DNA from: Planctomycetota bacterium
Lineage (GTDB): Bacteria; Planctomycetota; B15-G4
Direction: 5' to 3'
Assembly: GCA_038212275.1 (NCBI GenBank)
Contig: JBBQUR010000005.1
Span: 1 to 64,000 of the forward strand
Length of the DNA: 64,000 nucleotides
In this document: positions 8,316 to 37,974 of the stretch, one piece after another
Layout: the number at the start of each line of letters is the position of its first letter
Position numbering within the stretch: the stretch's first letter is position 1
Program-made: the position numbers and the translations under genes
The notes under the pieces: model-generated
The model's input: the letters and a program-made list of their open reading frames with translations, nothing else
Database searches by the model: none
What the model was told of the DNA's origin: nothing

Positions 8316-8345
8316 GCTCAGCTCAGCTCAGCTCAGCTCAGCTCA
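8316..8345. repeat. (GCTCA)6 microsatellite overlapping the actin gene stop
   Basis: Six exact copies; reads (TGAGC)6 on the minus strand. Confidence 0.9.
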
Positions 8346-9434: not shown

Positions 9435-9495
9435 GTTCACTCCTCGGAAAAGGCGGGGGTCGGGAATCGGTCAGGCCGGCGCGGGCGCCGGCGGG

Positions 9496-10371: not shown

Positions 10372-10581
10372 CGAAGTCCCCGGAGCCGTGACATCGGCCA
10401 ACCTGGCATCAAAGCTTGCGTGCGATCGTGTGAAACAGCAGTCTCAGGGTCAAATCGCGTCCAGTCCGCGCAGGTCCTTTTCGACTCGGCCGGGGCGGGC
10501 CCGACATTCCGGACCGCGGCCGATATCCAGCCGCGGCACTCCGCTGGTCGATGACGTCGGACACTTCCGAGGCAGCCGCGC

Positions 10582-12402: not shown

Positions 12403-12634
12403 GGCCCGGCCCCGTGCGCGCGATCGGATCGATCGCCGAGCCTTGGCTCTGCTTGCAGCAGCCCCAGGTGATGTCGCGCCCTGCGCTGGCGCGTGTGACC
12501 ACCAGCAGGAAGGCGCCGTGATGCTTGCAGCCTCCGATTCGCCTCGCTGTCGGCCTCAGCGCCGCGCCGGGGCTACCCGGACCGTGCCGATGGCGCTACC
12601 GTGGGAACAGACCCGTTCCGAGGGAGAGATCACC

Positions 12635-13984: not shown

Positions 13985-14044
13985 CGGCTCCGCAGCGGCC
14001 CCGCGGCACTCGCAGGCCGGCCACTCCCGGAGCCTCGACCGCCC

Positions 14045-15460
14045 ATGCGCATCGTCCTGGCCGTCCACGGTTACCCGCCGGAGCTGGCGGGCGGCACGGA
14101 GCACAGCGTGCAAGCGCTGGCGCGCGGGCTGGCAGGAGCGGGGCACCACGTCGCGGTCATCGCAGGCACGAACCACTACGAGCAGGGTTTCCGCACCAGT
14201 GCGACGACCGATCGCGACCCGGCGAGCGGCGCCAGCTTCCCGGTACACCGCATTCACCGCGGCGACCTCTACTTCGGGCACTGGCAGAAGAGTCGCAGCA
14301 CGCGCGCCAGCCTCGCGTTCGCGGCGTTGCTCGAACAGCTGCGTCCCGACGTGCTGCACGTGCACCACTGGCTGCGCCTTTCCAGCGATCTTGTCGCGCG
14401 CGCCGCCGCCGCTCGCGTGCCCGCCGTCGTCACGCTGCACGACCTGTGGACGACCTGCCTCGTCACCTTCCGCATCCGGCCGGACACGCAGAGCTTCTGC
14501 GAGGCGTCTCTCGCGCCGGATCCATGCCTCGCTTGCGTGGCGCACGTGCCGCCGCGCACGCCGTGGCGCACGTCGCGAGAGCTGGAGCTCGAGCTCCAGC
14601 GCCATCGCGCGGACCTGCAACGCGAACTGCGTCTCGCGCGCATCGTCACGGCCCTCTGCCGCGACCAGGCAGAAACGCTGTCGCGACTCGGACCATGGCC
14701 CTCAGGCACCGCGCCTGCAATCCACGTCCTGCCGCCCGGGAGGGATCTGTCACTGCCGCCGGCGGTGCCGCTTGCCTCGCCCTCCGGCCTGCGCCGTCTG
14801 ATCGTCGGCAGCTGGGGCGGCCTGCACTGGTTGAAGGGCACGGATCTGCTGATCGAAGCACTCAGCCGGCTGCAGCGCGAGGGCGGGCCGGTGGTGGAGT
14901 TGCACCTTGCCGGAAGCGAGGCCGAGACGTCAGTGGTTGCGAAGCTGCGCGCCGCGGCCGCTGGGCTGCGCGTGACCTTTCACGGACCCTTCGGAGCCGG
15001 CGGCCTCCCGGGCCACCCGGTCACGGCCGTACATGCCATGGTCAATGCCACGCGCGCTCACGAAACCTGGGGCCTCGTGCTCGACGAGGCCATCGCCCTG
15101 CGCCTCCCGATGGTGCTCCCGCGCGCGGGAGCTTTTCCCGAACACGTGGGAGAGCACCGGGGCGCGCTGTTCTATCCGCCTGGAGATGCAGGTGCGCTTG
15201 CGGCGAGCCTTGCGCGGCTTGCCACCGAGCCCGACCTGCTCGCGACGCTGCGGGCGCAGCTCCCGCCGCTGCACTCCGTGCTGCCCAGCCTGCGTGAGCA
15301 CGCCGATGCCGTGCTCGCCTGCTACGCGGCAGCATGTTCACAAGGCCCTCCCGACGCTCCTGCATTCGCTGCGGAGCAGGATGCGCAGGCCTCGCGGGCC
15401 GAGGCTGCATGGGATGTCGAACTCTCGCACCGGAGCGCCGAGGAACTGGGACTCGCATGA
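14045..15460 (+). CDS. Glycosyltransferase family 4 (GT-B)
   Basis: HGYPPELAGGTE, PDVLHVHH, VVTLHD, ETWGLVLDEA (Ex7E). Confidence 0.85.
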   Translation: MRIVLAVHGYPPELAGGTEHSVQALARGLAGAGHHVAVIAGTNHYEQGFRTSATTDRDPASGASFPVHRIHRGDLYFGHWQKSRSTRASLAFAALLEQLRPDVLHVHHWLRLSSDLVARAAAARVPAVVTLHDLWTTCLVTFRIRPDTQSFCEASLAPDPCLACVAHVPPRTPWRTSRELELELQRHRADLQRELRLARIVTALCRDQAETLSRLGPWPSGTAPAIHVLPPGRDLSLPPAVPLASPSGLRRLIVGSWGGLHWLKGTDLLIEALSRLQREGGPVVELHLAGSEAETSVVAKLRAAAAGLRVTFHGPFGAGGLPGHPVTAVHAMVNATRAHETWGLVLDEAIALRLPMVLPRAGAFPEHVGEHRGALFYPPGDAGALAASLARLATEPDLLATLRAQLPPLHSVLPSLREHADAVLACYAAACSQGPPDAPAFAAEQDAQASRAEAAWDVELSHRSAEELGLA

Positions 15461-15481
15461 GCGCTGCGACGGCAACTGCTC

Positions 15482-16063
15482 CTACCAGCGCTCGCGCGCA
15501 CAAAGCAGCAGCAGCGGCGTGAGCGAGAGTCCGTCCACGATCTCGCCGGCCAGCAGCATGTCGCGCAGCTCGGCGTGTGCGAACCAGCGTATGCCCAGCA
15601 CTTCATTGCGGTCGAAGTCCGTCGACGCGAGCGGCGCCACGTCCGCCTCGAAGAGGTGGAACTCCTGGTTGCCACTGCCGTAGCTGGGAAAGTACTGCTG
15701 TAGCGGGCGCATTGACAAAGCCTGATGGCCCGTCTCCTCTTCCAGCTCGCGCTCGGCGGCTTCGGCAAGGCCCTCGTCGGGTTCCGCGCCGCCCGACGGC
15801 AGGGCCCATACGTGCCGGTCCACGATGAAGCGGTACTGGCGGATGAGCAGGATCTCGCCGGGCCGTCGCGGCACGACGCCCACCGCACCCTTGCGATAGT
15901 CGATCGTGAAATAGGTGGTGATGCCGCGGTCCGGCATGCGCACGCGGCTGCGAAACACCGCGAAATACGGGTTGGAGAGCAGCTCCTCCCGGTCGAGCAC
16001 GTCCCAGCCCTTCTCCTGGGACGAACCGTCGGTGAACTCGTCGGGTGCTGGAGCCATGGGCAT
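15482..16063 (-). CDS. NUDIX hydrolase (ADP-ribose/NDP-sugar pyrophosphatase-like)
   Basis: LIRQYR and Nudix box PSGGAEPDEGLAEAAERELEEETG. Confidence 0.9.
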   Translation of the reverse strand: MPMAPAPDEFTDGSSQEKGWDVLDREELLSNPYFAVFRSRVRMPDRGITTYFTIDYRKGAVGVVPRRPGEILLIRQYRFIVDRHVWALPSGGAEPDEGLAEAAERELEEETGHQALSMRPLQQYFPSYGSGNQEFHLFEADVAPLASTDFDRNEVLGIRWFAHAELRDMLLAGEIVDGLSLTPLLLLCARERW

Positions 16064-16150
16064 TCGGGCCTCGCGCGGGTCGGATGGAACGAGGATAGCG
16101 GACAGCCTCGGGCCTCGTGTCTCGCACCGCACTCCGGCAAGGCAGTTAGG

Positions 16151-17374
16151 ATGTGGTTGATGAGGAGCAGCGGGAGCAGCGACGAGCCTTCGGCGCCGGC
16201 AGCGCGCGCACCGTACCCCGCGGCGTTGCTCGGCTCGTGGCGCGCCGCCGCGGACAGCGCCGTGGCCCGGCACCTGCACGTGGTCGTGCCGGACGTCGCC
16301 CGCTACGAGGTGCACTGCGAGCCCGGCTCGGCATCAAACTTCGGCAGCGCCTACGCCCGGCAGTTCGGCGCCCGCCCGCCCGTGGTGTTGAGCGATCACC
16401 GTGTGCATCGCCTGCACGGCAAGGCCTTCCTGGAGTCGTTCCGCACGGCGGGCCTGCAGCCGCAGCTGCTGCTCGTCCCGGACGGCGAGCGCAGCAAGAA
16501 CCTTGACGCCTTCACCAGGCTGCTCGACCGCCTCGCGGAGCTTGAATGCGATCGCCGCACGGTGCTGGTCAATTTCGGCGGCGGCGTGATTTCGGATCTC
16601 GGCGGTTTCGTGGCTTCGGCTTACATGCGCGGCCTGTCGTACGTGAACGTGCCCACGACGCTGCTGGCGCAGCTCGACGCGAGCATCGGCGGCAAGGTCG
16701 CGGTGAACACCGCGCGTGCCAAGAATCTCATCGGTGCCTTCCATCACCCGGAGCTGGTCACCTGCGATCCGGCCCTGCTTGCGACGCTCTCCGGGCGCGA
16801 CATGCGCAGCGGACTTGCCGAGGGCATCAAGGTGGCGATCATCGCCAGCCCCGAGCTGTTCGCGTGGATCGAGACGCACCGGCACGAGGTGCTGGCGGGC
16901 GACCCTGTGTCGCTCACAGGGCTTGTCGCCGAGGCCGCGCGTCTGAAACTGGCGCTGCTGGAGCACGATCCCTACGAGGCCGATCTGCGCCGGCCGCTCA
17001 ACTTCGGGCACACCATCGGGCATCCCGTGGAGACGGAGCTGGGCTACCGCGGCATCCGCCACGGCGAAGCGGTCGCCATCGGCATGGGCGTGGCCACGCT
17101 CGTCGCGCGCCGGCGGGGGCTCATCGACTCCGCCGACAGCGGCCGGATCCTGGACCTGTTGACCGCGTGCGGGCTGCTGTGGTCCGGCGAAGCGCTGCGC
17201 CCCGACGGCATCCTGGAACACCTGCGGACGGTGCGCCTCATCCGCGGCCGGGCGCTGCACTTCGTCCTGCCGCGGGCTCTCGGGGAGGTGCTCATCACCG
17301 ACGACGTCTCCTCCGCCGACCTCGTGCGCGGCTTCGAGGACTACGCCTGCCTCGTCCGCGAGCGCCTGTCATGA
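16151..17374 (+). CDS. Sugar-phosphate cyclase of the 3-dehydroquinate synthase superfamily (2-epi-valiolone-synthase-like)
   Basis: GGGVISDLGG, YMRG, PTTLLAQLDASIGGK, KNLIGAF, AEGIK, LNFGHTIGH, HGEAV; C-terminal DKK of AroB replaced by VRLIRG. Confidence 0.8.
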   Translation: MWLMRSSGSSDEPSAPAARAPYPAALLGSWRAAADSAVARHLHVVVPDVARYEVHCEPGSASNFGSAYARQFGARPPVVLSDHRVHRLHGKAFLESFRTAGLQPQLLLVPDGERSKNLDAFTRLLDRLAELECDRRTVLVNFGGGVISDLGGFVASAYMRGLSYVNVPTTLLAQLDASIGGKVAVNTARAKNLIGAFHHPELVTCDPALLATLSGRDMRSGLAEGIKVAIIASPELFAWIETHRHEVLAGDPVSLTGLVAEAARLKLALLEHDPYEADLRRPLNFGHTIGHPVETELGYRGIRHGEAVAIGMGVATLVARRRGLIDSADSGRILDLLTACGLLWSGEALRPDGILEHLRTVRLIRGRALHFVLPRALGEVLITDDVSSADLVRGFEDYACLVRERLS

Positions 17375-17859
17375 GCGACGCTCGCGCCAGCGACGCTGCG
17401 CCGCGCGTCGTGCATCTGGACGAGCTGCCGTTGCAGGACGTGGTGGCGCACGGCGGTGACGGACGCATCGGCTTCCGGCGCGTGCTCGGACAGAGCGCCC
17501 GCGATGCGCAGCACACCGCGGGCGCCTGGCACTTCGTGGACTACGCCGTGCTGCCGCCGGGCGCAAGTATCGGCCTGCATGCGCACGGCGAGAACGAAGA
17601 GCTTTACCTCGTCCTGCAAGGCGAAGGCCTGATGCAGCTCGGCGATCGCAGCGTGCGCGTGCGTGCTGGACACCTCATCGTGAATCCGCCGGGCGGCACG
17701 CACGGCCTGCGCAACGACGGCAACGTGCCGCTGCGCCTGTTCGTCGTCGAGGTGCCGCTGGCCGTGCCGCCTCATGCGGCACTGGCCGTGCCACTGGATG
17801 CGCCACTGGCCGTGCCGCCGGCAGGCCCCGCAGCACCTTTCTCGACACCTGCGCGTTGA
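17371..17859 (+). CDS. Cupin-domain protein
   Basis: IGLHAHGENEELYLVL and PGGTHGLRN; ATGA overlap with the cyclase. Confidence 0.85.
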   Translation: MSDARASDAAPRVVHLDELPLQDVVAHGGDGRIGFRRVLGQSARDAQHTAGAWHFVDYAVLPPGASIGLHAHGENEELYLVLQGEGLMQLGDRSVRVRAGHLIVNPPGGTHGLRNDGNVPLRLFVVEVPLAVPPHAALAVPLDAPLAVPPAGPAAPFSTPAR

Positions 17860-18623
17860 ACGGCCAGGCCGAGGCGCCGCTGCTCGACGACGTCACCGCC
17901 CTGGTGATGGCCGGCGGTCTCGGCACGCGCATGGCCGGCAGCCAGCCCTCGCTGCCGAAGCCTCTCGTGCGCGTCGGCGGCCACGCGCTGCTCGATCTCT
18001 CGCTGCGCCGGCTTCTGGCTGCGGGCGTGCGGGACATTCGCCTCGCCCTGCGCCACGAGGCTGCGGCGATCGAGGCGCACGTGCGTGCGCTGCCCGACGT
18101 CCCCGCCGGATGCGTGCGCTTCGTCGTGGAGCCGCAGCCGCTGGGCACCATCGGCGCCGTGTCGCTGCTTGCCGACGTGCAGCGCACGCTGCTCGTCACC
18201 AACGGCGACCTGCTGTCGGGGATCGACCTGCGCGCGCTCGGCGCCTTCCATCGCCGACGTGGCGCGGCGCTCAGCATCGCCACGCACGACGAGCACCATC
18301 GGCTGCGGTTGGGAGAGGTGGTCTCCGGGCCCGACGACGCCGTGATCGAATACGTCGAGAAGCCGGTCAAGAGCTACCGCATCTCGTCCGGAACCTACGT
18401 CATGCAGCCTGAGGTCATGGCGCTGGCGGCGCCCGGCGAATGGCTTGGCTTCCCGGAGCTCGCGCGGCGCGCGATCGATGCAGGCCTCAGTGTGCTGGAG
18501 TGCTTTCACCAGGAGCCGTGGCTGGACGTCAACGACGAGGACGACCTGCAAGCCGCCGAAGCGCTGCTGGCCAACGATCCTGCGGCCTTTGGCCTGACGC
18601 ACCCCGCGTTGCGACACCCATGA
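17856..18623 (+). CDS. Sugar-phosphate nucleotidyltransferase
   Basis: MAGGLGTRM, PKPLV, EPQPLGTIGA, NGDLL, YVEKP, WLDV; TTGA overlap. Confidence 0.9.
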   Translation: MNGQAEAPLLDDVTALVMAGGLGTRMAGSQPSLPKPLVRVGGHALLDLSLRRLLAAGVRDIRLALRHEAAAIEAHVRALPDVPAGCVRFVVEPQPLGTIGAVSLLADVQRTLLVTNGDLLSGIDLRALGAFHRRRGAALSIATHDEHHRLRLGEVVSGPDDAVIEYVEKPVKSYRISSGTYVMQPEVMALAAPGEWLGFPELARRAIDAGLSVLECFHQEPWLDVNDEDDLQAAEALLANDPAAFGLTHPALRHP

Positions 18624-20773
18624 GCTCCGCGCACTGGCTCGGCCTGGACATCGGCGCCACCAAGCTGCTCGCGCTCGCGCTTGACGAGCGCGGCGCCGTC
18701 CTGGCGTGCGAGACCGCTCCGACGCGTCGCGAGCGCGGTCCCGACGACGTCCTCTCGCGCGCCGCGGACCTGGCGCAGCAGGTCTCCGCACGTGCGGGAG
18801 GCTTGCCGGCCGGCGCGGGCGTCGGTGTTGCCGGCCTCGTGGATCACGCCACCGGGCGCGTGCTGAGTTCGATCATGCTCCCGGGCTGGGATGACTGGCC
18901 GCTGGCCGAGCGTCTCGCCGCGCGGCTCGGCATCCCGTGCCTCGCGGACAACGACGCGACGGCGGCGGGATGGGGCGAGTTCGTCGCGCTGGGTTCGCCG
19001 CCCGATCTCGACCTCGTGCTGCTCACGGTCGGGACCGGTATCGGGGGCGCGGCGATCCTCGGCGGCCGACTGCACCGTGGCGCGTCGGAAACGGCGGGGG
19101 AGTTCGGCAACATGAGCATCCACTGGCAGGGCGAGACCTGCTGGTGCGGCTCGCGTGGCTGCCTCAACATGCTGGCCTCCGGCTCGGCGATGGCGCGTCG
19201 TGCCGCGGAGCTTGGTTGCGTGCCGGCCGTCGCGGCCGTCGGCGGCGCGATGGGCACCCGGAGCGCCACGGAAGCACGCACGGCGGATCGCGGCGCAACG
19301 CTCACGCTGCACGACGTGGCCGCCGCCGCGGCCGCAGGCGATTGGGCCGCGCACGCCGCGATCGACGAGGGCGCGCGCGCTCTGGGCGCCGGCCTCGCGA
19401 ACATCGTGAACACCTGGAATCCGTCGCGCATCTCCCTGTGCGGCGGCGTGCTCGCGCTGGGCGACGGCTGGCTGAGCAGCGTGCGCGAGGAAGCCGGTCG
19501 CCGCGCGCTCGCCGTGCCCTTCGCCCGCGTGAGCATCGGACCCGCCGTGCACGGCGCCAGCACCGGCGCCTTCGGTGCCGCCTGCCTGGCGCAACGGGCC
19601 TTCGCGCCCGTCCCGGCGGAAAGCTCCCGACACGCGGCCGGTCCTGCGGGCGGCGGAATGCACGTCCCCTCGAAGGACTACCGCGCGCAATACGCCGCGC
19701 TGATGCCCGAGCTGCTGCCGCTGCTGGAGCGCACGCTGCTGGACGACGAGCCCGTGCTCGGCCGCGCCGTGACGGAGTTCGAAGCTGCCTTCGCGGCGTA
19801 CTGCGGCGTCGCGCATGCCATCGGCGTCGGCTCGGGCTTCGACGCGCTAGTCCTCGCGCTGCGCGTGCTGGGCGTCGGCCCGGGCGATGAAGTGATCACC
19901 GCCGCGAACACTTTCACCGGAACGGTCACGGCCATCCTTGACGCGGGTGCGCGCCCCGTGCTCGTGGATCCCGACGTGCGCACGCTGAACCTTTCCTTGG
20001 ACGGTGTGCGCGCGGCGCTGACGCCGCGCACGAAGCTCGTCCTCCCGGTGCACCTCTACGGCCGCCTTGCGCCGATGGCCGGGCTGCTCGCGCTGTGCGC
20101 GGACGCGGGCGTTCCGATCCTCGAAGATGCGGCTCAGGCGCACGGAGCGCGCGCGGGGGGCCGCCGGGCGGGCGCCTTCGGTCGACTCGGCGCCTTTAGC
20201 TTTCATCCGAGCAAGAACCTGGGAGCCTTCGGCGACGGCGGCGCGATCACCACCGACGACGCCGCGCTCGCGACCACGCTGCGCGAACTGCGCCACCTGG
20301 GCAAGCGCGACAAGCACCACTTCGCGCACGTGGCGCCCAATACCAAGCTGGACACGCTGCAGGCCGCGCTGCTGCTGCTGAAGCTGCCCAGGCTGGATGC
20401 TCAGAACGCAAGGCGCCGCGCGCTGGCGGCCCGATATCGCGCCGGGCTGTCGGACTGTGAGGGCCTGCTGCTGCCGGAGGATCCGGGCGACGAGTCGCAC
20501 GTCTGGCACCAGTACGTGGTGCGCAGCGCGCGTCGCGACGCGCTGCGTGCGGAGTTGAAGGCCGCCGGCATCCAGGCGGGCCTGCACTATCCCGTCGCGC
20601 CGCACGAGCAGCCGCTGGGCGTGCCGCTCGTGGTTCCGGCCCGCGGCCTGCCCGTGGCCGAGGCGTCCGCGCGCAGCGTGCTGTCTCTGCCCATCGCACC
20701 TGAGCTGAGCGATGCGCAGATCGGCATGGTCATCGAGGCGGTGCGCGCTGCGCATCACGCGCGGCCGTCGTGA
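18620..20773 (+). CDS. ROK-family kinase fused to DegT/DnrJ/EryC1/StrS aminotransferase
   Basis: ROK: GLDIGATK, DNDA, VGTGIGG, CWCGSRGCL; aminotransferase from ~19658: EDAAQAHG, FSFHPSKNLGAFGDGG; no stop between; ATGA overlap. Confidence 0.9.
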   Translation: MSSAHWLGLDIGATKLLALALDERGAVLACETAPTRRERGPDDVLSRAADLAQQVSARAGGLPAGAGVGVAGLVDHATGRVLSSIMLPGWDDWPLAERLAARLGIPCLADNDATAAGWGEFVALGSPPDLDLVLLTVGTGIGGAAILGGRLHRGASETAGEFGNMSIHWQGETCWCGSRGCLNMLASGSAMARRAAELGCVPAVAAVGGAMGTRSATEARTADRGATLTLHDVAAAAAAGDWAAHAAIDEGARALGAGLANIVNTWNPSRISLCGGVLALGDGWLSSVREEAGRRALAVPFARVSIGPAVHGASTGAFGAACLAQRAFAPVPAESSRHAAGPAGGGMHVPSKDYRAQYAALMPELLPLLERTLLDDEPVLGRAVTEFEAAFAAYCGVAHAIGVGSGFDALVLALRVLGVGPGDEVITAANTFTGTVTAILDAGARPVLVDPDVRTLNLSLDGVRAALTPRTKLVLPVHLYGRLAPMAGLLALCADAGVPILEDAAQAHGARAGGRRAGAFGRLGAFSFHPSKNLGAFGDGGAITTDDAALATTLRELRHLGKRDKHHFAHVAPNTKLDTLQAALLLLKLPRLDAQNARRRALAARYRAGLSDCEGLLLPEDPGDESHVWHQYVVRSARRDALRAELKAAGIQAGLHYPVAPHEQPLGVPLVVPARGLPVAEASARSVLSLPIAPELSDAQIGMVIEAVRAAHHARPS

Positions 20774-23103
20774 CGCGGGCAGCCGCGATACGTGCTTCAA
20801 TTGCCTGCACTCCGGCTGTGATCGCGGTGCTGGGCGGCGGCAGCGCGTTCACGCCGGCGCTGGCGCTGGCGCTCGCCGAGGCCGCCTCGAGCCTGCCGCC
20901 GCTGCTGATCCGCCTGCATGGCCGCGACGCTTCGCGCACGGCGGACGTGGCCGCGTGCTGCGAGCGCCTCGCGCGCGGGGCCGGCGCGTCGCAGCATTAC
21001 GAGTCCTGCCCGTCGCTGGAAGTTGCGGCCCGCGGCGCGGCGGTCGTCGTGAACCAGATGCGCGTCGGCGGCTGGGCCGGACGCACGCACGACGAGCGCT
21101 TCCCGCTCGCCCACGGCCTGCCCGGCGACGAGACCATCGGCCCGGGGGGGGTGGCCTCCGCGCTGCGCACCCTGCCCGTCGTGCTGCGGGCCGCGCACGT
21201 CTGCGCCTCGGCGGCTCCCGGCTGCTGGTTCGTGAACCTCAGCAACCCGATGGGCATCGTGCTGGCCGCGCTCGCGGACGTCCCCGGCGTGCGCGCACTT
21301 GGCCTGTGCGAGCTGCCCGGCGAGACGCTTCGGCGCGCGCTCGCCCTGCTTCCGGAAGATCGCGCCCCCGTGCAGGTGGACTACCTTGGTCTCAACCATC
21401 AGGGCTGGTTCACACGCATCGAGCGCGGCGGCCGCGACTTGCTGCCCGACGTCGCGGCCGCGCTGGCGCGCGCCGAGGCGACGCACGCCCCGGAGGCGGA
21501 GTTCTTCGGCGTGGACGCGGAGCTCGTCGAGATGCGGCACGCGCTGCCGCTGCCCTACATGCGGCTCTACGAGCACCGCGAGCGCGAGGTCGCCGCGTTG
21601 CGTGCGCGCCACGTCGCGCGTGGGGACGAGTTGCGCGCACTGTCCGACGCGCTGCACGCCGCCTGCGCGGCCGGCACCGAGGTGGGCGACGCCGGACTGC
21701 GTGCGCTGCTCGCTCGTCGCCGCACGAGCTGGCTTCCGGACGCCCTCGTGCCGGCGCTCGCGGCGCTGCTCGGCGGGCCGCCCGCGGAGTTGTATGTGTC
21801 GCAGCCGAACCGAGGACACATCGCCGCGCTGCCGGCCGAGGCGATCGTCGAACAGCGCTGCCTCGTGGATGGGGAGGGCGCCCGCGCACTGCCCTGGCTT
21901 CCTGCGCCGTTGTCCGACCCTGCGGACGACGCGCGCCAGGCGGCGCGCCTGGAGCTGCTGCACCGTATTGCGCGCTTCGAGGCTGAGGCCTGTCGCGCCG
22001 CCTGCGCCGCCGATCCGGAAAGCGCGCGCTCGGCGGCGCTGCGGGCGCTGGCAGAGCATCCCTTCGACATCGCGCCGGCGACTGCGCAGGCCATGCTTGG
22101 CGACCTCTTCGCGCCGCTGCAGGGCGCGGGCCCTGCCGTCGCTTGCAACAGCGCGGCGCTGGATGCGTTGGCCGACAGCGACGTGGAGCAACGGCTCATG
22201 GCGTCCGTACGCGGAGGGCAGCTGTCCGCAGCAGCGCTTCGCACGGCGCTGCCGTCCTTCCCGCTCAAGCTGCAGCTCCAGACGTCCAGTCCGTGCAATG
22301 CGAGCTGCGTCATGTGCCCGTGGCCCGACACGCGCAGCACGCAGCCTCAAGGCCTCATGTCGGAGGAACTCTTCGACCGCATCGTGGCGCAGCTCGCCGG
22401 GCGCGGCGTCCTGCGCACCAGCCTCTTCCTCATGAACGAACCGCTGCTCGACCGGCGCCTCGAGCGTCTCACGGCGCGCCTCAAGCAGCGCGTGCCGGAG
22501 ACGACCGCGCTCATCTTCACCAACGGCAGCGGGCTCAGTGCGGCGCGCGCTCTCGCACTTGCAGACGCCGGAATGGACGAGATCAACGTGTCGGTCGTCG
22601 GCTTCGACCGCGAGAGCTACGCGCAGATCATGCGCGACATCGACTACGACGTCGTGCTGTCCCACCTCGAGGCGGTCGGCAGCCTGGCGACCGCCGGGCG
22701 ACTCGGCCGGATGGCGGTGCGCGTCGTGGGCCTGCAGTTCGAGCGCGCGCTCGAGGGTCTGGAAGCCTTCCGCGAACGAGTCGGACTCCCGGTCTTCCTC
22801 AAGCCGGTCAGCAACCGGGCCGGCCTGGTGGACCTCGACGAGCTGCATCCGACGACGGCGCGCGCCGCACGCTTTTCCGCGTGCCAGCGCCCTTTCGTGA
22901 AGGCCTACGTGCTGTACAACGGCGACCTCGTACTGTGCAACTGCGACTGGGAACGCACGACCGTCATCGGCAACCTCGCCGAGCGGAGCCTGGAGGACCT
23001 GTGGACCGATCGACGCCTGATGGCCATCCGCGAGCAGCATTGCAGCGGCGAGCTCGAACGCCATTCGCTCTGCGCCCGCTGCGACTACCCATGGCTTGCG
23101 TGA
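20770..23103 (+). CDS. GH4 (6-phospho-beta-glucosidase-like) fused to radical SAM/SPASM domain
   Basis: GH4: LGGGSAFTP, QMRVGG, DETIGPGG, NLSNP, GLCELP, GLNH; radical SAM: CNASCVMC; SPASM/twitch: CQRPF...LCNCD...IGNL...CARC; GTGA overlap. Confidence 0.88.
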   Translation: MTRAAAIRASIACTPAVIAVLGGGSAFTPALALALAEAASSLPPLLIRLHGRDASRTADVAACCERLARGAGASQHYESCPSLEVAARGAAVVVNQMRVGGWAGRTHDERFPLAHGLPGDETIGPGGVASALRTLPVVLRAAHVCASAAPGCWFVNLSNPMGIVLAALADVPGVRALGLCELPGETLRRALALLPEDRAPVQVDYLGLNHQGWFTRIERGGRDLLPDVAAALARAEATHAPEAEFFGVDAELVEMRHALPLPYMRLYEHREREVAALRARHVARGDELRALSDALHAACAAGTEVGDAGLRALLARRRTSWLPDALVPALAALLGGPPAELYVSQPNRGHIAALPAEAIVEQRCLVDGEGARALPWLPAPLSDPADDARQAARLELLHRIARFEAEACRAACAADPESARSAALRALAEHPFDIAPATAQAMLGDLFAPLQGAGPAVACNSAALDALADSDVEQRLMASVRGGQLSAAALRTALPSFPLKLQLQTSSPCNASCVMCPWPDTRSTQPQGLMSEELFDRIVAQLAGRGVLRTSLFLMNEPLLDRRLERLTARLKQRVPETTALIFTNGSGLSAARALALADAGMDEINVSVVGFDRESYAQIMRDIDYDVVLSHLEAVGSLATAGRLGRMAVRVVGLQFERALEGLEAFRERVGLPVFLKPVSNRAGLVDLDELHPTTARAARFSACQRPFVKAYVLYNGDLVLCNCDWERTTVIGNLAERSLEDLWTDRRLMAIREQHCSGELERHSLCARCDYPWLA

Positions 23104-23179
23104 CCGGGCCGGCCGCGCGGTGCCGTCGCGAACGGTCGGGCGTGAACGACCGGTTCGGCGAGAACGAGACGAGGTGCGC

Positions 23180-24160
23180 ATGAAACTCTCGGTCTGCCCG
23201 CAACCGCTCTATCGACTGGGTCTTGAGGGCGCGCTGGACGAGATCGTGAAGCTCGGGCTCACGGCGCTGGAGCTGCCGGTCGATGGGCGCAGCCCGCTCG
23301 TCTCGCTCGACACGCTGCTCGCGGGCGGCCGCGGGCCGGGCAGCGCTGCGGCGCTGAGCAGCGAGCTGCGCGCGCGCGGCCTGTCCCTCTCCGCGATCTC
23401 CAATCATCAGGAGGGGCAGCTTCTGCTCGGCCCTTACCAGCGCGACACGGACGCAATCTGCGCGGGCGATGCCGCACGCAAGGCTGCATTCGCGCGCGAG
23501 CGGCTGTTGCAGAGCGCACGTCTCGCGTCCGAGCTGCAGGTGCCCGTGCTCGTCGGCTTCGTCGGTTGCGAAGACTGGAGCCGGTTCTTCCCGTGGCCCG
23601 ACGCCCAGGGCTGGGAGTCGATGCAGCCGCGCTTCACCGAGGTCGTCGGCGGTCTGCTCGACGACCTCGAGCGGCTCGGCGTGAGCTTCGCGCAGGAACC
23701 GCACCCGCGGCAGATCGTCTACAACACGGAGACGGCGCTGCAGTCCGTCGCCTGGCTGGGCGGGCACAGACGCTGGGGCTTCAATCTGGATGCCGGCAAT
23801 CTGCTGCTGGCCGGATGCGACCCGGTGGTCTTCGCGCAGGAGCTTGGCGCGCGCGTGCTGCACGTTCACGCCAAGGATGCCGAGCTGGTCGCGCACAATG
23901 CACGTCGTTCGGGACTGCTCGCGCACGGCGACTGGGATCGCAGCGACCGCGGCTTCCGCTTCCGCATCCCCGGCTGGGGTGACGTGTCGTGGCGACGCCT
24001 GCTCTCCGAGCTGCAGCTGGGCGGGTATTCCGGCTGGCTGGCCATCGAGCACGAGGATCCCGTCTTCGACGCACTGGACGGACTGACCAAGGCCATCGCG
24101 GCGCTGAAGCCTCTGCTTCCCGATGGTCCGCGTCCCGACGCCAGGCAGCGCTGGTGGTAG
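23180..24160 (+). CDS. Sugar phosphate isomerase/epimerase (xylose-isomerase-like TIM barrel)
   Basis: FAQEPHP, GFNLDAGNL, HVHAKD, FRIPGWGDVSW, AIEHED; RBS GAGG. Confidence 0.85.
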   Translation: MKLSVCPQPLYRLGLEGALDEIVKLGLTALELPVDGRSPLVSLDTLLAGGRGPGSAAALSSELRARGLSLSAISNHQEGQLLLGPYQRDTDAICAGDAARKAAFARERLLQSARLASELQVPVLVGFVGCEDWSRFFPWPDAQGWESMQPRFTEVVGGLLDDLERLGVSFAQEPHPRQIVYNTETALQSVAWLGGHRRWGFNLDAGNLLLAGCDPVVFAQELGARVLHVHAKDAELVAHNARRSGLLAHGDWDRSDRGFRFRIPGWGDVSWRRLLSELQLGGYSGWLAIEHEDPVFDALDGLTKAIAALKPLLPDGPRPDARQRWW

Positions 24161-25317
24161 GCGAGGCGCGCGAGGCTGGCTCATGGTCCGTGCGTGACGG
24201 ACGCGTCCCGCGTCGCGTCGGCCTCGCGGCGCCGCCCGCGTGCGACTACCTGCCGTCGCTGATTCTGCCCGACCTGGCGCGAGCCCGGCTGCTGGCGCGC
24301 GCTGCGCAGTGGGTCGATGTCGTGGGCGTGGCGCACGCCGGGGCGCCAGACCGCGCACGAGGCGCAGCGCCGGAGGGACCGGTGCTGGTGCACGTCGACC
24401 TGGGGGCGCAGGGATTCCTGGCTGACGAGACGGCGGCGGTGTTCGCAGCCGAGCACTGCGACGAGGTGTTCGTGCTGGGCGAGCCGCAGCTGCACGACGC
24501 GTTCGGGATGCTGGTCGCCGCGCTGCGTGCGCGCGGCCTGCGCATCGCGCACGCGGCGCCGGACGAGGGCGCCCTGGCCGCGCTGGCCTCGTGGTGGCAG
24601 CGTTGCGGCGGCAGCCCGCCTGCCACCGTGAACGCCAGCGCGCCTGACGCCGCGCCGACGGACGCGCCGATGGCCGCAACGGGAGGCGTGCCGGCGCACG
24701 TTCGCCCCTGGCCCGAGCTGCTGTTGACCCGAGCGGACGAGGCCGTGCCCGCGGCACACGGCATCGTCTTCGAGGAGCAGCCCGACGGTAGCCTGCTGCG
24801 TCGGAGCCCGGGGCCCGCAGGCTGCGTGCGCGCCGAGGTCGATGTGATCCACGTGCACACGTCGGAGCAATGGACCGAAGCCGCGCTTCGAACAGTCGCC
24901 CCGACGGACCTCGTGGCCCTGCGGCTGGGCGCGGAGGACGCGGAGTCGGCCTCGACGTCGGCGGCGATCGCGCGGATGGCCGCGTTGCGGGCGCGCTTCG
25001 GACCGGCGCGCGTGCGCCTCGCCGTCGACCGCGTGTCTCTGACGACCGATGCGCGATGCGGCGGCGCGCCGTGGGCCGCACGCTTGCGGCTCGATGGTGG
25101 CAGCACCCTGAGCCGCGTGCTGGCCGGTGTGCCTGGCCACGCGCCGACCGATACGCTGACCGACGCGACCCGTGGCGAGCCGACTCGGGCGCAGCGTCGC
25201 CAGCTTGCCGCCGCGCTCGCCTGGCAGGCGCTGGGCGTCGACCCGCTCGAGGAGATCTACGCAGGCAATGCGCTGCCGGATCGCAACGCGGCCATGCTCG
25301 TGAACATCGTGCCGTGA
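24154..25317 (+). CDS. Hypothetical protein within the cyclitol operon
   Basis: Long ORF overlapping both neighbours (start inside the epimerase stop region, GTGA overlap downstream); no recognised motif. Confidence 0.55.
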   Translation: MVGEAREAGSWSVRDGRVPRRVGLAAPPACDYLPSLILPDLARARLLARAAQWVDVVGVAHAGAPDRARGAAPEGPVLVHVDLGAQGFLADETAAVFAAEHCDEVFVLGEPQLHDAFGMLVAALRARGLRIAHAAPDEGALAALASWWQRCGGSPPATVNASAPDAAPTDAPMAATGGVPAHVRPWPELLLTRADEAVPAAHGIVFEEQPDGSLLRRSPGPAGCVRAEVDVIHVHTSEQWTEAALRTVAPTDLVALRLGAEDAESASTSAAIARMAALRARFGPARVRLAVDRVSLTTDARCGGAPWAARLRLDGGSTLSRVLAGVPGHAPTDTLTDATRGEPTRAQRRQLAAALAWQALGVDPLEEIYAGNALPDRNAAMLVNIVP

Positions 25318-27686
25318 TCGAAGAGACGGCGCCCGCGCAGGCCTTGCTGTTGCGTGTCTTTCCGGAACTGGAGGCGCTGGTGTCGCCCGGATGCGCGACG
25401 CTCAAGGACGCCCTCGGGCCGCTGCTGCACCTCGCTGCGCCCGGGGACACGCTCGTGATCGAGGATGGCCGTGCGCGCGTGGCACCGCTCGATGGCGTCA
25501 AGCCCGTCCCGCACGTCGGTCTGCACTGGTTGCTGCCGCTGTTTTCCGGTGACGATCTTGCGTCTCGGCTGCGCGAGGCGCTGGCGACGATCCGCACCGA
25601 CGCGTGGGGCTTCCGCTGCGCAGGCCTGCTGCCGATCTTCGTTTCGAGCGATGCGCGCCTGCACCCGGCGTGCTGGGGAGTGCTGCCGTCCCACGATCCA
25701 CCTGCCGCGTGGCGCGCGCTGACGCGCGACCTCGTCCGCGAACTCTGCCCGGACAGAAGCCTGCTCTGGCGGGCGCAGGAGCACGCGGCCCTCGCGGGCG
25801 TCGTGACGCGGGACGACGTGGACACGGTCGAACGCATGCGACGTGCGCTGCACGAGAGCGGCCGCCCCCGGCTCATCGCGGTGTGCGGCATCGACGGCGC
25901 GGGGAAGTCGGCACACGTCGAGGCCCTGAAGTTGCACTGCACGACGCGCGGGCTGGTCTGCACGACGCACAAGCTGTTCCGTCACGGCGTGTTTCACGAG
26001 ACCGTGACGGATCTCACGCGCCTGTGCGCGGGCGACCGCGCGCTGCACCTGTGGCGCCTGCAACGGCTCGTCAAGGCGCAGGACACGCTGCGCTGCTGGC
26101 ACGAGGAGGTGCTGCCGCGACTGCCCGACGTGGACGTCGCGCTGTTCGACCGCTACGTCTTCACGCACCACGCGGAGGCGGCTGGGCGTCTGCACGACGA
26201 TGCGCACACGCGCGTGCTGCTCGCCTCGCTGCCCGACCCGGACCACGTCGTGCTCCTCGACGTGCCCGTGGAGCTGGCGCTGGAGCGCATCGGTGAGCGC
26301 ACCGCGCGGACGGTGGACGAAAATCCCGTCATGCTGGGCCGCTATCGGCACGCCCTGCTCGACATGGCGGACCGACGTGGTTGGCTCGTGCTGGATGGAC
26401 GCGCGCCGTTCGCGGAGAACACCCGGGCGATCCGCGAGCACCTCGAGGCTTCATTGCGCGCATGCGCCGGGCGCAGCGTGTGCGACGAGGAAGCCCGCGC
26501 ACCGAGTGCCTCACCGTTCGCGCCGGACGGCGAGATGTCGGCGATGGCGATGCCGGGGACGGCTGTGCCGGCAACGGAGGCGCCGGCGATGGCGATGCCG
26601 GTGATGCGGGATGTGCAACTCGCGCCTGCCATCGGGCGCCAGAGAGCCGGGGAAGGGCGCCGGGTCGTTCGGCTGCACGTCGACCCGGCCGTGAGTGACT
26701 GTGCAAACTTGGTGCGGGGCACGCCGCTGCTGCTGCCGACGTCAGGCGAGCTGGCCGCACGCGATCAGCTGCTCGCAGCCTCGCGCCAGGGCCTGCTGCC
26801 GACCGAAGTCGCGATGCACCTCCACGCGTGGGACATCGTCCAGCAGGTGCGCACGGCGTGCGAGCGAGTGCGCGGCCACGACGCGCCGGAGCACGGCACA
26901 CCGGGAGATGATGCGCCCTTCGTCATCCCGTTCTGGCCACCGGCGCTGTTCGCAGCGGCAGGCGTGACGTGGCATGCGTGGCCCGAACTCGAGCGCGTGC
27001 TGCTCGCGCGTCCCGGTGCGCCGGCCGACCGGGCGCGGGCCGCGCTGCTGCGCGTGACCTTCGCCTGCGCTGGTCCCGAGGATGTCGAACGTGCTGCGGC
27101 GCGCGTCCTGTCGTGCGAGCTGAGTTCCGCGGGCCAGGCTTCCGGCGCCGCGTCTCTGGAACAGCTCTCGCGGCTGGTGCTCGTGTCGTCGCCGACGGCC
27201 GGGGTTGCGCCTCCCGCGGGAGGCCTTCCCTTCGCGGGCGTGACGGCGGGCGGTTTCCTCCTGCGCGACGGCCGCGTGCTGCTCGAGCGCCGACCACCGG
27301 ATGCACGGCTCGCGCCCGGTGTCTGGGACAGTCCCGGCGGCAAGGCACATCCCGACGAGCGGCCGCTGGAGACGTTGCGTCGTGAGCTCCACGAGGAGCT
27401 CGGCATCGAGGTGACGGGCGCGCGCCTCGTGGCGATTCTGGACGAGGCCGTTGATCTGCCGGCCGACGCCGCGGCCGGTGAGCGCGCGGCCGGTGAGCTC
27501 GCAGGCGGCACCTGGCGTCACCATCATTTTGAAGTCACGTCGTGGAGGGGCGAGGTCGCGGCGCGCGAGGGTCAGGCGCTGATGTGGCACGGCATTCAGG
27601 CCGCCGCCGCGTTGCCGGACATGCACCCGCTCACGGCCTACGCGATGGCTGCGCTGCTCGCCCCGCGCACGGCATCGCCAGCCTGA
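25314..27686 (+). CDS. Multidomain protein: unknown N-domain + thymidylate-kinase-like domain + C-terminal NUDIX
   Basis: IAVCGIDGAGKS P-loop and LFDRY (TMK motif); Nudix box PGGKAHPDERPLETLRRELHEELG; GTGA overlap. Confidence 0.8.
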   Translation: MIEETAPAQALLLRVFPELEALVSPGCATLKDALGPLLHLAAPGDTLVIEDGRARVAPLDGVKPVPHVGLHWLLPLFSGDDLASRLREALATIRTDAWGFRCAGLLPIFVSSDARLHPACWGVLPSHDPPAAWRALTRDLVRELCPDRSLLWRAQEHAALAGVVTRDDVDTVERMRRALHESGRPRLIAVCGIDGAGKSAHVEALKLHCTTRGLVCTTHKLFRHGVFHETVTDLTRLCAGDRALHLWRLQRLVKAQDTLRCWHEEVLPRLPDVDVALFDRYVFTHHAEAAGRLHDDAHTRVLLASLPDPDHVVLLDVPVELALERIGERTARTVDENPVMLGRYRHALLDMADRRGWLVLDGRAPFAENTRAIREHLEASLRACAGRSVCDEEARAPSASPFAPDGEMSAMAMPGTAVPATEAPAMAMPVMRDVQLAPAIGRQRAGEGRRVVRLHVDPAVSDCANLVRGTPLLLPTSGELAARDQLLAASRQGLLPTEVAMHLHAWDIVQQVRTACERVRGHDAPEHGTPGDDAPFVIPFWPPALFAAAGVTWHAWPELERVLLARPGAPADRARAALLRVTFACAGPEDVERAAARVLSCELSSAGQASGAASLEQLSRLVLVSSPTAGVAPPAGGLPFAGVTAGGFLLRDGRVLLERRPPDARLAPGVWDSPGGKAHPDERPLETLRRELHEELGIEVTGARLVAILDEAVDLPADAAAGERAAGELAGGTWRHHHFEVTSWRGEVAAREGQALMWHGIQAAAALPDMHPLTAYAMAALLAPRTASPA

Positions 27687-27785
27687 GTTGCCGCCGCGGG
27701 CTGCCTGCAGGCGAGCGGACCGCTGCGCCTGGGCGTCGCGCCGCCATCCCCGGTCTTTCCGCGCGTCGCCGCCCGACGCAGTCCC

Positions 27786-32966: not shown

Positions 32967-35696
<2,730 letters not shown>

Positions 35697-35759
35697 GGGT
35701 GCCCGCCTGATGGAGTCGCGGTGCGCGACGTCCGAACGCTCAGGATAAGGCAGCGAGCA

Positions 35760-37907: not shown

Positions 37908-37974
37908 GTCGGGCGGCAGCGTAGCGAGTCGGGCAGCCGAACGTGAGCGTCGTGGCAGCGGGTGCGCCGAGCTT

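Follow-up and report, generated by a model that had tools for sequence, protein, structure and literature searches.

The window analysed here is the first 64 kb (64,000 nucleotides) of JBBQUR010000005.1, a 268,658-base contig in the genome of a Planctomycetota bacterium (GCA_038212275.1; 4.65 Mb, 91% complete), and its GC content is approximately 70%. Ten genes occupy positions 14045-27686, namely a gene for a glycosyltransferase of family 4 (GT4), a divergently oriented NUDIX hydrolase gene, and then eight co-oriented, mostly overlapping genes that begin with a cyclase of the 3-dehydroquinate synthase (DHQS) family. This cluster is considered here as a candidate (amino)cyclitol pathway. The gene model was drawn from an open reading frame (ORF) listing, codon-position GC, Pfam and NCBIfam scans, and a survey of start codons. 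The GT4 gene (14045-15460, + strand) matched Pfam Glyco_transf_4 at 1e-17 and Glycos_transf_1 at 7e-13, and the divergent NUDIX gene (15482-16063, − strand), of NudE or ADP-sugar type, matched Pfam NUDIX at 6.3e-19 and NCBIfam NudE at 3e-12. The remaining eight genes lie on the + strand. The cyclase (16151-17374; Pfam DHQ_synthase 5.7e-44, DHQS_C 3.3e-32) is followed by a small Cupin_2 protein (17371-17859; Cupin_2 1.2e-15, with a weak MannoseP_isomer match), a nucleotidyltransferase (17856-18623; NTP_transferase 3.9e-22), and a single ORF in which a ROK kinase is fused to a DegT aminotransferase (18620-20773; ROK 2.8e-53, DegT_DnrJ_EryC1 1.3e-102). Next comes a fusion of a glycoside hydrolase family 4 (GH4) domain with a radical S-adenosylmethionine (SAM) and SPASM domain (20770-23103; Glyco_hydro_4 1.6e-28, Glyco_hydro_4C 2.2e-20, Radical_SAM 3.4e-14, SPASM 1.9e-10), and then a xylose-isomerase-like TIM barrel (23180-24160; AP_endonuc_2 3.7e-25). 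The set is completed by a 387-residue protein that has no Pfam or NCBIfam match (24154-25317) and a multidomain protein (25314-27686) made of an N-terminal domain, a thymidylate kinase (TMK)-like domain (Thymidylate_kin 1.2e-10), a segment termed "mid" and a MutT/NudG-like NUDIX domain (NUDIX 1e-14). All of the domains named in the preliminary description of this DNA were thus recovered, each above its Pfam gathering score.

Five of the seven junctions among the co-oriented genes are four-base start/stop overlaps (ATGA at 17371, TTGA at 17856, ATGA at 18620, GTGA at 20770, and GTGA at 25314). The TIM-barrel gene and that of the 387-residue protein overlap by 7 bases (GTG at 24154, stop at 24160). 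The junction between the radical SAM and TIM-barrel genes would be an 8-base overlap if translation started at TTG 23096 and a 76-base gap if it started at ATG 23180; the latter is most likely because all five homologues begin at the residue equivalent to ATG 23180. The earlier picture of eight co-oriented ORFs, nearly all joined by overlaps, is confirmed, its one correction being this start of the TIM-barrel gene. The start of the divergent NUDIX gene was placed at ATG 16063 or 16057 by comparison with homologues of approximately 185 residues. Codon-position GC agrees with the reading frames of the operon. Over the final ~450 bases of the GT4 gene (14980-15460) it prefers a minus-strand frame (ORF 14930-15337, without a Pfam match); the plus-strand GT4 alignment nonetheless extends to about residue 432. 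Between 13800 and 28200 neither a terminator-like nor a sigma-70-like site turned up, which is weak evidence. A 20,491-base Logan contig from run X1 covers positions 14000-27800 with 0 differences, indicating that the junctions of the fused genes do not belong to a single assembly alone, though X1 is possibly the source sample and so not independent of it. The many short joints reported with it, with sides of 20-25 letters, stem from other contigs of a GC-rich metagenome and were set aside.

The conservation of this gene set was examined with the GH4-radical SAM protein as a query against 30 related genomes, 15 of the same family and 15 of the same order. None of the 15 same-family genomes gave a close homologue; their best matches had E values of 2e-12 or weaker and covered the radical SAM core only, and two genomes had no match. 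Both halves of the protein were located on one contig in 5 of the 15 same-order genomes, as adjacent separate genes in two of them (G019 and G026), with a few kb between them in the remaining three. Stretches of 20 kb around these five contigs (loci L011-L015) were then compared with the window by tblastn using 14 query pieces. Eleven pieces were present in all five loci, that is, the cyclase, cupin, nucleotidyltransferase, ROK, DegT, GH4, radical SAM, TIM barrel, TMK, C-terminal NUDIX and GT4, while the 387-residue protein and the TMK N-terminal domain were each detected in two and the divergent NUDIX in one. Two flanking controls, the upstream ORF at 12065 and a Na/H exchanger, were detected in none of the five. 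The locus in genome G019 (L011) is colinear with the window, and every gene is separate there.

A profile of the TIM barrel retrieved 38 loci from species-representative genomes, every one of them a metagenome-assembled genome (MAG); five are the same contigs as L011-L015. Their labels comprise Planctomycetota (including Phycisphaerales, Planctomycetaceae and Brocadiaceae), Gemmatimonadota, Acidobacteriota, Myxococcota, "delta proteobacterium", actinobacterium, Microthrixaceae, Binatia, KSB1 and Eisenbacteria. Among the 23 loci of at least 15 kb, which carry labels from at least eight phyla, 14 contain all ten domains, four are partial, and five (L040, L041, L045, L049 and L050) contain only a core of six, the cyclase, cupin, nucleotidyltransferase, ROK, GH4 and TIM barrel. 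This indicates a cluster built on six core genes, with DegT, radical SAM, TMK and NUDIX as an optional module. The gene set is one conserved functional unit rather than a chance arrangement, and its synteny recurs in many genomes. The cluster is rare: of 401 genomes sampled from the phylum, 6 have a close orthologue of the TIM barrel (E ≤ 1e-60). The TIM barrel of the window is 65-68% identical to those in L016, L017 and L020, which belong to other phyla, as against 57-58% to those in L028 and L046 of the same order; that cross-phylum loci are closer than some same-order ones points to horizontal spread. Insertion boundaries could not be drawn against the same-family genomes, in which a Na+/H+ exchanger was the only shared gene and no flanking synteny was seen in G012 or G014. 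A plasmid search with the TIM-barrel protein yielded no copy of the cluster and one distant match, 36.6% identical, on a Rhodococcus plasmid.

The preliminary description presented the operon as built from fused enzymes, a trait that does not extend to the cluster at large. The GH4 and radical SAM domains are fused in only 3 of 19 close GH4 homologues. They are also fused in L016, and ROK and DegT are separate genes in L011 and L016. The fusions are thus particular to the lineage of the window. Different ones were observed elsewhere: a short-chain dehydrogenase/reductase (SDR) forms the N-terminus of the cyclase in L020, L041, L045, L050 and L052, and a 1056-residue SDR-cyclase-ROK protein is encoded in L049 (10868-14038, − strand). 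An orthologue of the fused SDR was found neither in the window nor in the genome, where the best SDR match is 31% identical and lies on another contig. Together with the ROK-DegT fusion of the window, these fusions tie the kinase to both the cyclase and the transaminase, which fits a kinase that supplies the phosphate to be eliminated by the cyclase. The flanks of L011 hold a YdjC deacetylase, a sulfotransferase and a methyltransferase (L011:1914-3846, +; L011:17097-17897, −), which suggests lineage-specific tailoring of the product. Other neighbours include a PgaB-like deacetylase (L020), a GNAT protein (L031), extra GT4s (L026, L031, L041, L045 and L049), methyltransferases (L026, L031 and L052) and LegB-like SDRs (L031, L032, L045 and L049). 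Deacetylase and GT4 neighbours echo the logic of MshA/MshB and BtrM/BtrD.

The genome contains two genes of the DHQS family, the cluster copy and one at G000:C1:119822-120832. An aroB model applied to 31 genomes gave one copy in most of them and an additional, cluster-linked copy in each of the six carriers and only there. A tree was constructed after leaving out seven duplicate rows and four short high-scoring segment pairs, one of which was replaced by the full ORF of L002. The copy on C1 grouped with the single copies of the same-family genomes G001 and G009 (support 100/99), and 26 cluster cyclases from all phyla were split from eight housekeeping rows with support of 100/100 and a branch length of 1.0. 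The cluster cyclase is therefore an extra paralogue and not the shikimate-pathway copy. The preliminary description had named two outcomes that would tell against it: that the cyclase makes 3-dehydroquinate as the only aroB of the genome, or that the genes are nowhere else syntenic and act on ordinary hexoses. The housekeeping copy on C1 disposes of the sole-aroB case, and neither outcome was found in full. The identity among cluster cyclases is 45-58% across phyla, as against 36-43% to housekeeping AroB of the same order.

The cyclase scored 148.9 bits with DHQ_synthase and 111.8 bits with DHQS_C. Its matches to solved structures in the Protein Data Bank (PDB) ranked a DHQS (3okf, 3.4e-62) before DDGS (5tpr, 7.6e-44), ValA (4p53, 8.5e-42) and BtrC (2d2x, 5.6e-33), so a closer kinship to the EEVS, DDGS and DOIS cyclitol synthases (AcbC/ValA, BtrC) than to DHQS was not borne out. 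Alignment to 3okf showed that the DHQS motif R-x-x-x-N-x-G-H-x-x-G-H is retained. Residues R160, D176, K182, N192, E224, K227, K266, R280, N284, H287, H291 and H304 do not vary among the eight housekeeping rows, and among the 26 cluster rows each is either invariant or conserved to 95% or more; we take them to be the equivalents of R130, D146, K152, N162, E194, K197, K250, R264, N268, H271, H275 and H287 of the Aspergillus nidulans DHQS, with roles in binding the metal and DAHP, the 7-phosphate of 3-deoxy-D-arabino-heptulosonate. The cluster cyclases, all or nearly all of them, differ from housekeeping AroB at four positions: A to N at 141, T to V at 183, which adjoins the K152 equivalent, and DKK to xRL at 362-363. 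Position 362 is R in 26 of 26 cluster cyclases and position 363 is L in 25 of 26, whereas seven of the eight housekeeping rows have K-K and the eighth a gap. The altered lysine presumably corresponds to K356, a phosphate-binding residue. EEVS has Asp in place of N268, and the DKK site reportedly counts, following Kean et al. 2014, among the fingerprint sites that distinguish the cyclase subfamilies. In the cluster cyclase the N268-equivalent Asn is kept while the K356-equivalent site is changed. The subfamily fingerprint comprises 14 sites (Kean 2014, as cited in PMC4426668). The cluster cyclases thus form a distinct clade with intact catalytic and metal residues that would be annotated plainly as "aroB". 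Such a label may mislead. EboD, a DHQS-like enzyme formerly annotated as AroB, is described in part of PMC12904256 as cyclising mannose 6-phosphate, and the EVS clade, according to a passage of PMC5133447, would pass as DHQS in trees. These two cases caution against inferring function from a likeness to DHQS, and the substrate could be either DAHP-like or a sugar phosphate.

The DegT domain appears from its PDB matches to resemble the C3 aminotransferases of nucleoside diphosphate (NDP)-3-keto-sugars far more than BtrR. Its best matches were DesV (6.5e-90), a chain titled glutamine-scyllo-inositol transaminase (5.6e-82), QdtB (1.2e-74) and WbpE (1.3e-72), followed at a distance by 3-amino-5-hydroxybenzoate (AHBA) synthase (2.7e-44), NtdA (4.5e-44), 2-deoxy-scyllo-inosose aminotransferases (~1e-34 to 1e-36) and BtrR itself (2c7t, 1.8e-34). 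The parallel with BtrR is therefore not supported in the form first proposed. The ROK domain is glucokinase-like (PDB 3vgk, 1.2e-32) and weakly matched the beta-glucoside kinase BglK (2.4e-14). The nucleotidyltransferase matched mannose-1-phosphate guanylyltransferase (3e-23) and HddC (4.5e-12) in NCBIfam, and GMPPB (7d72, 1.8e-15) and HddC (6jq8, 2.3e-11) in PDB. It is therefore predicted to act on a sugar-1-phosphate or pseudosugar-1-phosphate in the manner of GDP-mannose and GDP-heptose pyrophosphorylases, which departs from the proposed kinship with AcbR and ValB, enzymes treated as GlgC-like in the portion of PMC9200736 that concerns them. The cupin best matched generic small cupins (1o4t, 9.9e-12) and then a mannose-6-phosphate isomerase entry (8e-4); neither FdtA/QdtA nor RmlC was among its PDB matches at E values up to 1. 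It adjoins the nucleotidyltransferase in most loci and may be a sugar-phosphate isomerase or epimerase.

The GH4 domain scored 99.9 bits with the N-terminal and 74 bits with the C-terminal Pfam model of its family, and its closest PDB entries are 6-phospho-alpha/beta-glucosidases (~1e-35). The motifs GGGS, GLCE and GLNH, conserved in 30 sequences, are presumably the NAD motif and the Cys and His metal ligands of GH4, the latter with the adjacent acid. With both family domains and these motifs, the domain belongs by sequence to GH4 and is predicted to be an NAD/Mn-dependent oxidase-eliminase, and GH4 enzymes start catalysis by oxidation at C3. The other half of the protein scored 53.8 bits with Radical_SAM and 41.3 bits with SPASM, and 21 sequences keep CxxxCxxC and the SPASM cysteines without exception. 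Among solved structures this half is best matched by BtrN (9.1e-14), though over residues 501-608 in the radical SAM core only. The TIM barrel is the best-conserved protein of the cluster, 58-67% identical to its homologues, and matched 2zds (3.8e-23), 2-hydroxy-3-keto-glucal hydratase (8ro4, 1.5e-13) and IolE (3.6e-6). "Epimerase", the label given to it in the preliminary description, was a gloss that is not visible in the sequence; it is probably a (de)hydratase acting beside a ring ketone. The GH4 gene lies directly upstream of it in 23 of 23 long loci, and the distant homologue on the Rhodococcus plasmid adjoins a Gfo/Idh/MocA dehydrogenase. The GH4-TIM pair suggests 3-keto chemistry. DegT lies directly upstream of GH4 in full clusters, and this order, along with the relatives of the three proteins, reads as C3-type oxidation, elimination or hydration, and then transamination.

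In the last protein of the operon, Pfam placed the TMK-like domain at residues 192-371 and the NUDIX domain at residues 643-774, and the translation shows a P-loop, a DRY motif and a canonical Nudix box. PDB matches were a CTP pyrophosphohydrolase (4.2e-11) and the TMK of Mycobacterium tuberculosis (3e-6). The parts of this protein correspond to three separate ORFs in L011 and L020. Neither its N-terminal domain nor "mid" (26580-27230) matched Pfam at E ≤ 0.1; the latter, in which a Pro-Phe-Trp-Pro motif is conserved, stands elsewhere as an ORF of its own, ~180 residues long (L011:5967-6518, −; L017:13515-14111, +; L020:13296-13811, +), and its AlphaFold2 model, built from a 4-sequence alignment, had a pLDDT of 38.9 and was unusable. 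These two and the 387-residue protein are three families in the cluster that have no Pfam model. The 387-residue protein is fast-evolving, giving 28 matches at E ≤ 0.001 among 1.84 billion representatives, and has a conserved C-terminal motif. Its AlphaFold2 model (pLDDT 77) retrieved nothing from PDB at E ≤ 0.001 with Foldseek. A Rossmann- or B12-binding-like fold was considered for it, but the best VIA-align Z score was 7.3, from generic matches within the noise range of the tool that were confined to residues 18-156, so no fold was assigned. The divergent NUDIX is 56-58% identical to its counterparts in L017, L018 and L020 and 44-49% to those in four Myxococcota loci, and lies directly downstream of the SDR-cyclase gene in L020. 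GT4 homologues stand beside the cluster in all five same-order loci and in 9 of the 38 loci, with 48-52% identity in L016 and L019, and the GT4 probably couples an activated (pseudo)sugar or glycosylates the ring. PADLOC assigned none of 11 proteins to a defence system; nine had no match, and the two NUDIX-bearing proteins matched the generic NUDIX model PDC-S07, the TMK-NUDIX protein also matching PDC-M51B marginally (7.6e-4).

Taken together, the operon is read here as a horizontally spread pathway for an (amino)cyclitol or pseudosugar, in which the module for amination and nucleotide chemistry is optional and whose product would be nucleotide-activated and then coupled by a glycosyltransferase; we hold this tentatively, at slightly under an even chance. 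Starting from the co-location of the genes, their fusions, the intact catalytic motifs, and the paralogue status and separate clade of the cyclase, all of them observed, we infer its substrates, step order and product, the NDP-activated amino-carbasugar of the preliminary description included. The ROK kinase, perhaps after isomerisation by the cupin, would provide a terminally phosphorylated sugar, from which the cyclase would eliminate phosphate and close a six-membered keto-carbocycle, the substrate being DAHP-like or a hexose or heptose phosphate. The GH4 NAD/Mn enzyme and the TIM barrel would then oxidise and eliminate or hydrate to leave a ring ketone at a C3-type position. In the full cluster, the DesV/QdtB/WbpE-like DegT enzyme could turn this ketone into an amine, and the BtrN-like radical SAM/SPASM enzyme could make a further ketone. 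By analogy with AcbU and AcbR, the TMK-like kinase and the GDP-sugar-type nucleotidyltransferase would yield an NDP derivative of the ring, the two NUDIX hydrolases trimming or recycling nucleotide. The GT4 would finally couple the product, to which other lineages might add a deacetylase, sulfotransferase, methyltransferase or GNAT step.

A bolder version of this proposal is that a hitherto unrecognised DHQS-like branch, the GH4 oxidase/eliminase and the IolE-like TIM barrel, joined in full clusters by the C3 transaminase, the BtrN-like radical SAM enzyme and the TMK-like kinase, make a new class of nucleotide-activated (amino)carbasugars, possibly a carboxy-carbasugar from a DAHP-like acid, and that horizontal transfer has carried the pathway into eight or more phylum-level groups of bacteria, mostly uncultured, from sediment, soil and water. 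We consider this version less likely than not. A search of open-access full texts by combinations of the enzyme families, GH4 with (amino)cyclitol among them, returned no published description of the gene set, in line with the earlier remark that it was not recognised.

Several observations weigh against the cyclitol proposal. The cyclase passes the aroB model TIGR01357, if only at the border (307.4 bits for a cut-off of 305; the housekeeping copy scores 270), and R280, N284, K266, K182 and N192 (window numbering), which we take to be the binders of the DAHP carboxylate and phosphate, are retained. With the DHQS motif and these residues kept, the cyclase may take a DAHP-like substrate or even simply make 3-dehydroquinate. 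Its tree covers cluster and housekeeping rows and holds no EEVS, EVS, DOIS, aminoDHQS or EboD references, so the placement of the clade within the superfamily falls outside its scope. The nearest relatives of DegT act on NDP-hexoses and not on cyclitols, the cupin and the nucleotidyltransferase look like an ordinary pair of mannose-6-phosphate isomerase and GDP-mannose pyrophosphorylase, and the SDR fused to the cyclase elsewhere is NDP-sugar 4,6-dehydratase-like and fits NDP-sugar chemistry at least equally. The GT4 is the only transferase of the cluster, which has no pseudoglycosyltransferase of the GT5 or GT20 kind, and no transporter or resistance gene is conserved with it. No product, transcript or cultured carrier is known, the 38 loci all being MAGs, and no RNA run is catalogued for this DNA.

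Much of this evidence would be explained if the cluster made an NDP-3-amino(deoxy)sugar for a glycoconjugate, with the nucleotidyltransferase forming the NDP-sugar, GH4 (elsewhere the SDR) the keto-sugar, DegT aminating C3, GT4 transferring the product, and the cyclase being a genuine additional 3-dehydroquinate synthase, there to provide an acceptor derived from shikimate or simply to raise flux. The closeness of DegT to DesV, QdtB and WbpE and of the nucleotidyltransferase to GDP-mannose and HddC pyrophosphorylases accords with such a route, as do the LegB-like or dTDP-glucose 4,6-dehydratase-like SDRs of related loci, with their extra GT4s, PgaB-like deacetylase, sulfotransferase and methyltransferases, and the aroB score and DHQS motif of the cyclase. 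The window itself, however, lacks a 4,6-dehydratase, the genome offering only the 31% identical SDR on another contig; the cupin is not FdtA- or RmlC-like; and no flippase, polymerase or polyprenyl-phosphate transferase was present among the Pfam-scanned neighbours. The fusion of the cyclase to ROK and SDR in other phyla also speaks against this route, and the DKK to xRL change, common to all 26 cluster cyclases, argues for a role within the pathway and an altered substrate. We consider this explanation unlikely. A kanosamine/aminoshikimate-type route, in which GH4 and the TIM barrel make a 3-keto sugar, DegT aminates it, ROK phosphorylates it as RifN or the Ntd enzymes do, the cupin isomerises, and a DAHP-like condensation feeds an aminoDHQ synthase to give an aminobenzoate-like unit, would place the cyclase in the pathway with its DHQS-type active site, which aminoDHQ synthases retain. 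It would also account for the ROK-DegT fusion and a C3-type aminotransferase that matches AHBA synthase (2.7e-44) and NtdA (4.5e-44) as well, and the TIM-barrel family holds ring-ketone dehydratases. Yet no DAHP-synthase-like gene exists in the cluster, and the genome (91% complete) gave 0 matches to PF01474 and two to PF00793, both on other contigs. Five long loci keep the cyclase, ROK, GH4 and TIM barrel with no DegT within 10 kb, DegT is much nearer to DesV than to AHBA synthase, and the radical SAM, TMK, NUDIX and GT4 proteins would be left without a role, all of which makes this route quite improbable.

The nucleotide enzymes invite a different view, in which the operon would produce or process a modified nucleotide or nucleotide-sugar: the MutT-like NUDIX converts a nucleoside triphosphate to the monophosphate, the TMK-like kinase re-phosphorylates a modified monophosphate, and this is decorated by the sugar enzymes. 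The TMK and NUDIX domains share one protein in the window and co-occur with DegT and radical SAM in 15-16 of the 23 long loci, the C-terminal NUDIX is NudG/CTP-pyrophosphohydrolase-like, and two NUDIX genes and a nucleotidyltransferase share one cluster. Against this, no base-modifying enzyme was recognised, the PADLOC matches were only generic NUDIX ones, and the core-six version keeps the cyclase, ROK, GH4 and TIM barrel without TMK or NUDIX, so that a nucleotide product seems to us very improbable. More remote still would be the catabolism or salvage of a phosphorylated glycoside, with ROK phosphorylating, GH4 cleaving, and the TIM barrel and cupin isomerising. ROK and a GH4 6-phospho-glucosidase do form a known catabolic pairing, and GH4 is closest here to 6-phospho-alpha/beta-glucosidases while ROK has its weak BglK match (2.4e-14); but the cyclase, nucleotidyltransferase, aminotransferase, radical SAM enzyme and GT4 are anabolic, and the cluster is accompanied by no conserved sugar transporter or catabolic regulator.

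Two further identities were tried and set aside. In the hopanoid cyclitol-ether genes HpnI/J/K the radical SAM enzyme is B12-dependent, whereas that of the window is of the SPASM type, and no hopanoid genes are nearby. Legionaminic or pseudaminic acid synthesis was rejected because DegT scored 192 bits with PseC (cut-off 423.5) and 167.5 bits with LegC (cut-off 420), a NeuB-like synthase was not found, and LegB-like SDRs occur only in other loci. The surroundings of the cluster in the window were also inspected. A regulator with MerR helix-turn-helix and B12-binding domains, of the light-responsive CarH/LitR type (11455-12402, +), shares the strand of the GT4 and lies two genes upstream of it. 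It is followed by a long ORF (12065-13984, +) whose initial ~170 residues, with their abundance of Arg, Trp and Ala, do not resemble coding sequence; after them come a plausible signal peptide and a secreted protein of ~460 residues without a Pfam match, and the ORF is not conserved in L011-L015. Farther upstream are a weakly MreB/actin-like gene (8343-9470, −), a gene without an assigned family (9496-10443, −) and a ParA-like P-loop gene (10555-11373, +). True MreB genes are close to the cluster in L043 and L045, probably by coincidence. Tandem GlgB-like branching enzyme and GlgX/isoamylase-like genes (32967-38093, −) belong to ordinary glycogen metabolism. The GC content dips to 0.586 at 2001-4000 and 0.650 at 54001-56000, compared with approximately 0.70 elsewhere in the window.

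Cyclitol and aminocyclitol pathways have given the aminoglycosides, acarbose, validamycin, and the sunscreens gadusol and mycosporines, and to our knowledge their entry enzymes all fall in a few characterised cyclase clades. The present clade is distinct and sits in a conserved operon with folds not known from cyclitol pathways, namely GH4, a TMK-like kinase, two NUDIX hydrolases and the three families without a Pfam model, in carriers from phyla that are almost unexplored chemically. If the proposed class of carbasugars did exist, it would give the GH4 fold its first biosynthetic role and add those three families; the cluster may exemplify a glycosidase fold recruited for biosynthetic C3 oxidation. 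Its ~12 kb offer natural-product chemists a concrete target and a test case for mis-annotated aroB paralogues, and even if the cyclase were an ordinary DHQS, the cluster would still define an undescribed route to an NDP-aminosugar.

Among known systems, the dTDP-3-amino-3,6-dideoxyhexose and desosamine pathways (QdtA/QdtB, FdtA/FdtB, DesV) provide the nearest relatives of DegT, in DesV and QdtB, and in the window a nucleotidyltransferase and a small cupin accompany DegT. The window differs from them in lacking a 4,6-dehydratase, in its generic Cupin_2 protein and in a nucleotidyltransferase that is GDP-sugar-like and not RmlA-like. Kanosamine and aminoshikimate synthesis (RifL/K/M/N/H/G; NtdC/A/B) has in common with the window that a glucose derivative is oxidised and then transaminated at C3, that a ROK-type kinase takes part, and that the DHQS-type cyclase has an unaltered DHQS pocket, but the candidate oxidase here is of the GH4 and not the Gfo/Idh/MocA type, an aminoDAHP synthase is missing, and the amination module is optional. 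The GH4, 3-keto-glycoside lyase-hydratase and IolG-IolE systems resemble the window in that GH4 motifs stand beside a TIM barrel related to ketoglucal hydratase and IolE, and a pairing of dehydrogenase and TIM-family protein of this kind recurs on the Rhodococcus plasmid. Those systems are catabolic, whereas the present pair lies in an anabolic operon, with a C3 aminotransferase directly upstream and a radical SAM enzyme fused to it.

The ebo cluster, as outlined in parts of PMC12904256 and PMC5133447, is another widespread cryptic operon with a DHQS-like cyclase (EboD), a xylose-isomerase-like TIM barrel (EboE) and a hydrolase that cleaves phosphate or nucleotide. Its UbiA prenyltransferase (EboC), EboA, EboB, TatD and phosphodiesterase (EboF) families were absent from general Pfam scans of the window genes, which have GT4 as the coupling enzyme and add a kinase, a nucleotidyltransferase, GH4, DegT and radical SAM. 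The acarbose pathway, in the sections of PMC9200736 that set it out, employs two cyclitol kinases and a phosphatase, besides a cyclitol nucleotidyltransferase that prefers GTP and a pseudoglycosyltransferase. Acarbose and validamycin synthesis (AcbC/ValA, AcbM/ValC, AcbU, AcbJ, AcbR/ValB, AcbS/VldE) parallels the window in its DHQS-family cyclase, sugar-like kinases that act on the ring, a nucleotidyltransferase making an NDP-pseudosugar, an aminotransferase and a coupling transferase (PMC9200736, same sections). The window nucleotidyltransferase is nevertheless GMPP/HddC-like and not GlgC-like, its transferase is GT4 and not GT5 or GT20, and its GH4, TIM barrel, radical SAM/SPASM enzyme, TMK-like kinase and two NUDIX hydrolases have no counterpart there. 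As for its cyclase, DHQS is a nearer relative than ValA, and the position that is Asp in EEVS remains Asn. With 2-deoxystreptamine synthesis (BtrC, BtrS/BtrR, BtrN; BtrM/BtrD) the cluster has in common a cyclase, a DegT-type aminotransferase and an enzyme like a radical SAM dehydrogenase, along with a GT4 and, in some loci, a deacetylase, although BtrC is the weakest match of the cyclase (5.6e-33), BtrR is far behind DesV for DegT (1.8e-34 versus 6.5e-90) and the match to BtrN covers the core only. By analogy, the proposed (amino)cyclitol pathway would thus follow the logic of acarbose/validamycin and 2-deoxystreptamine synthesis with different enzyme folds.

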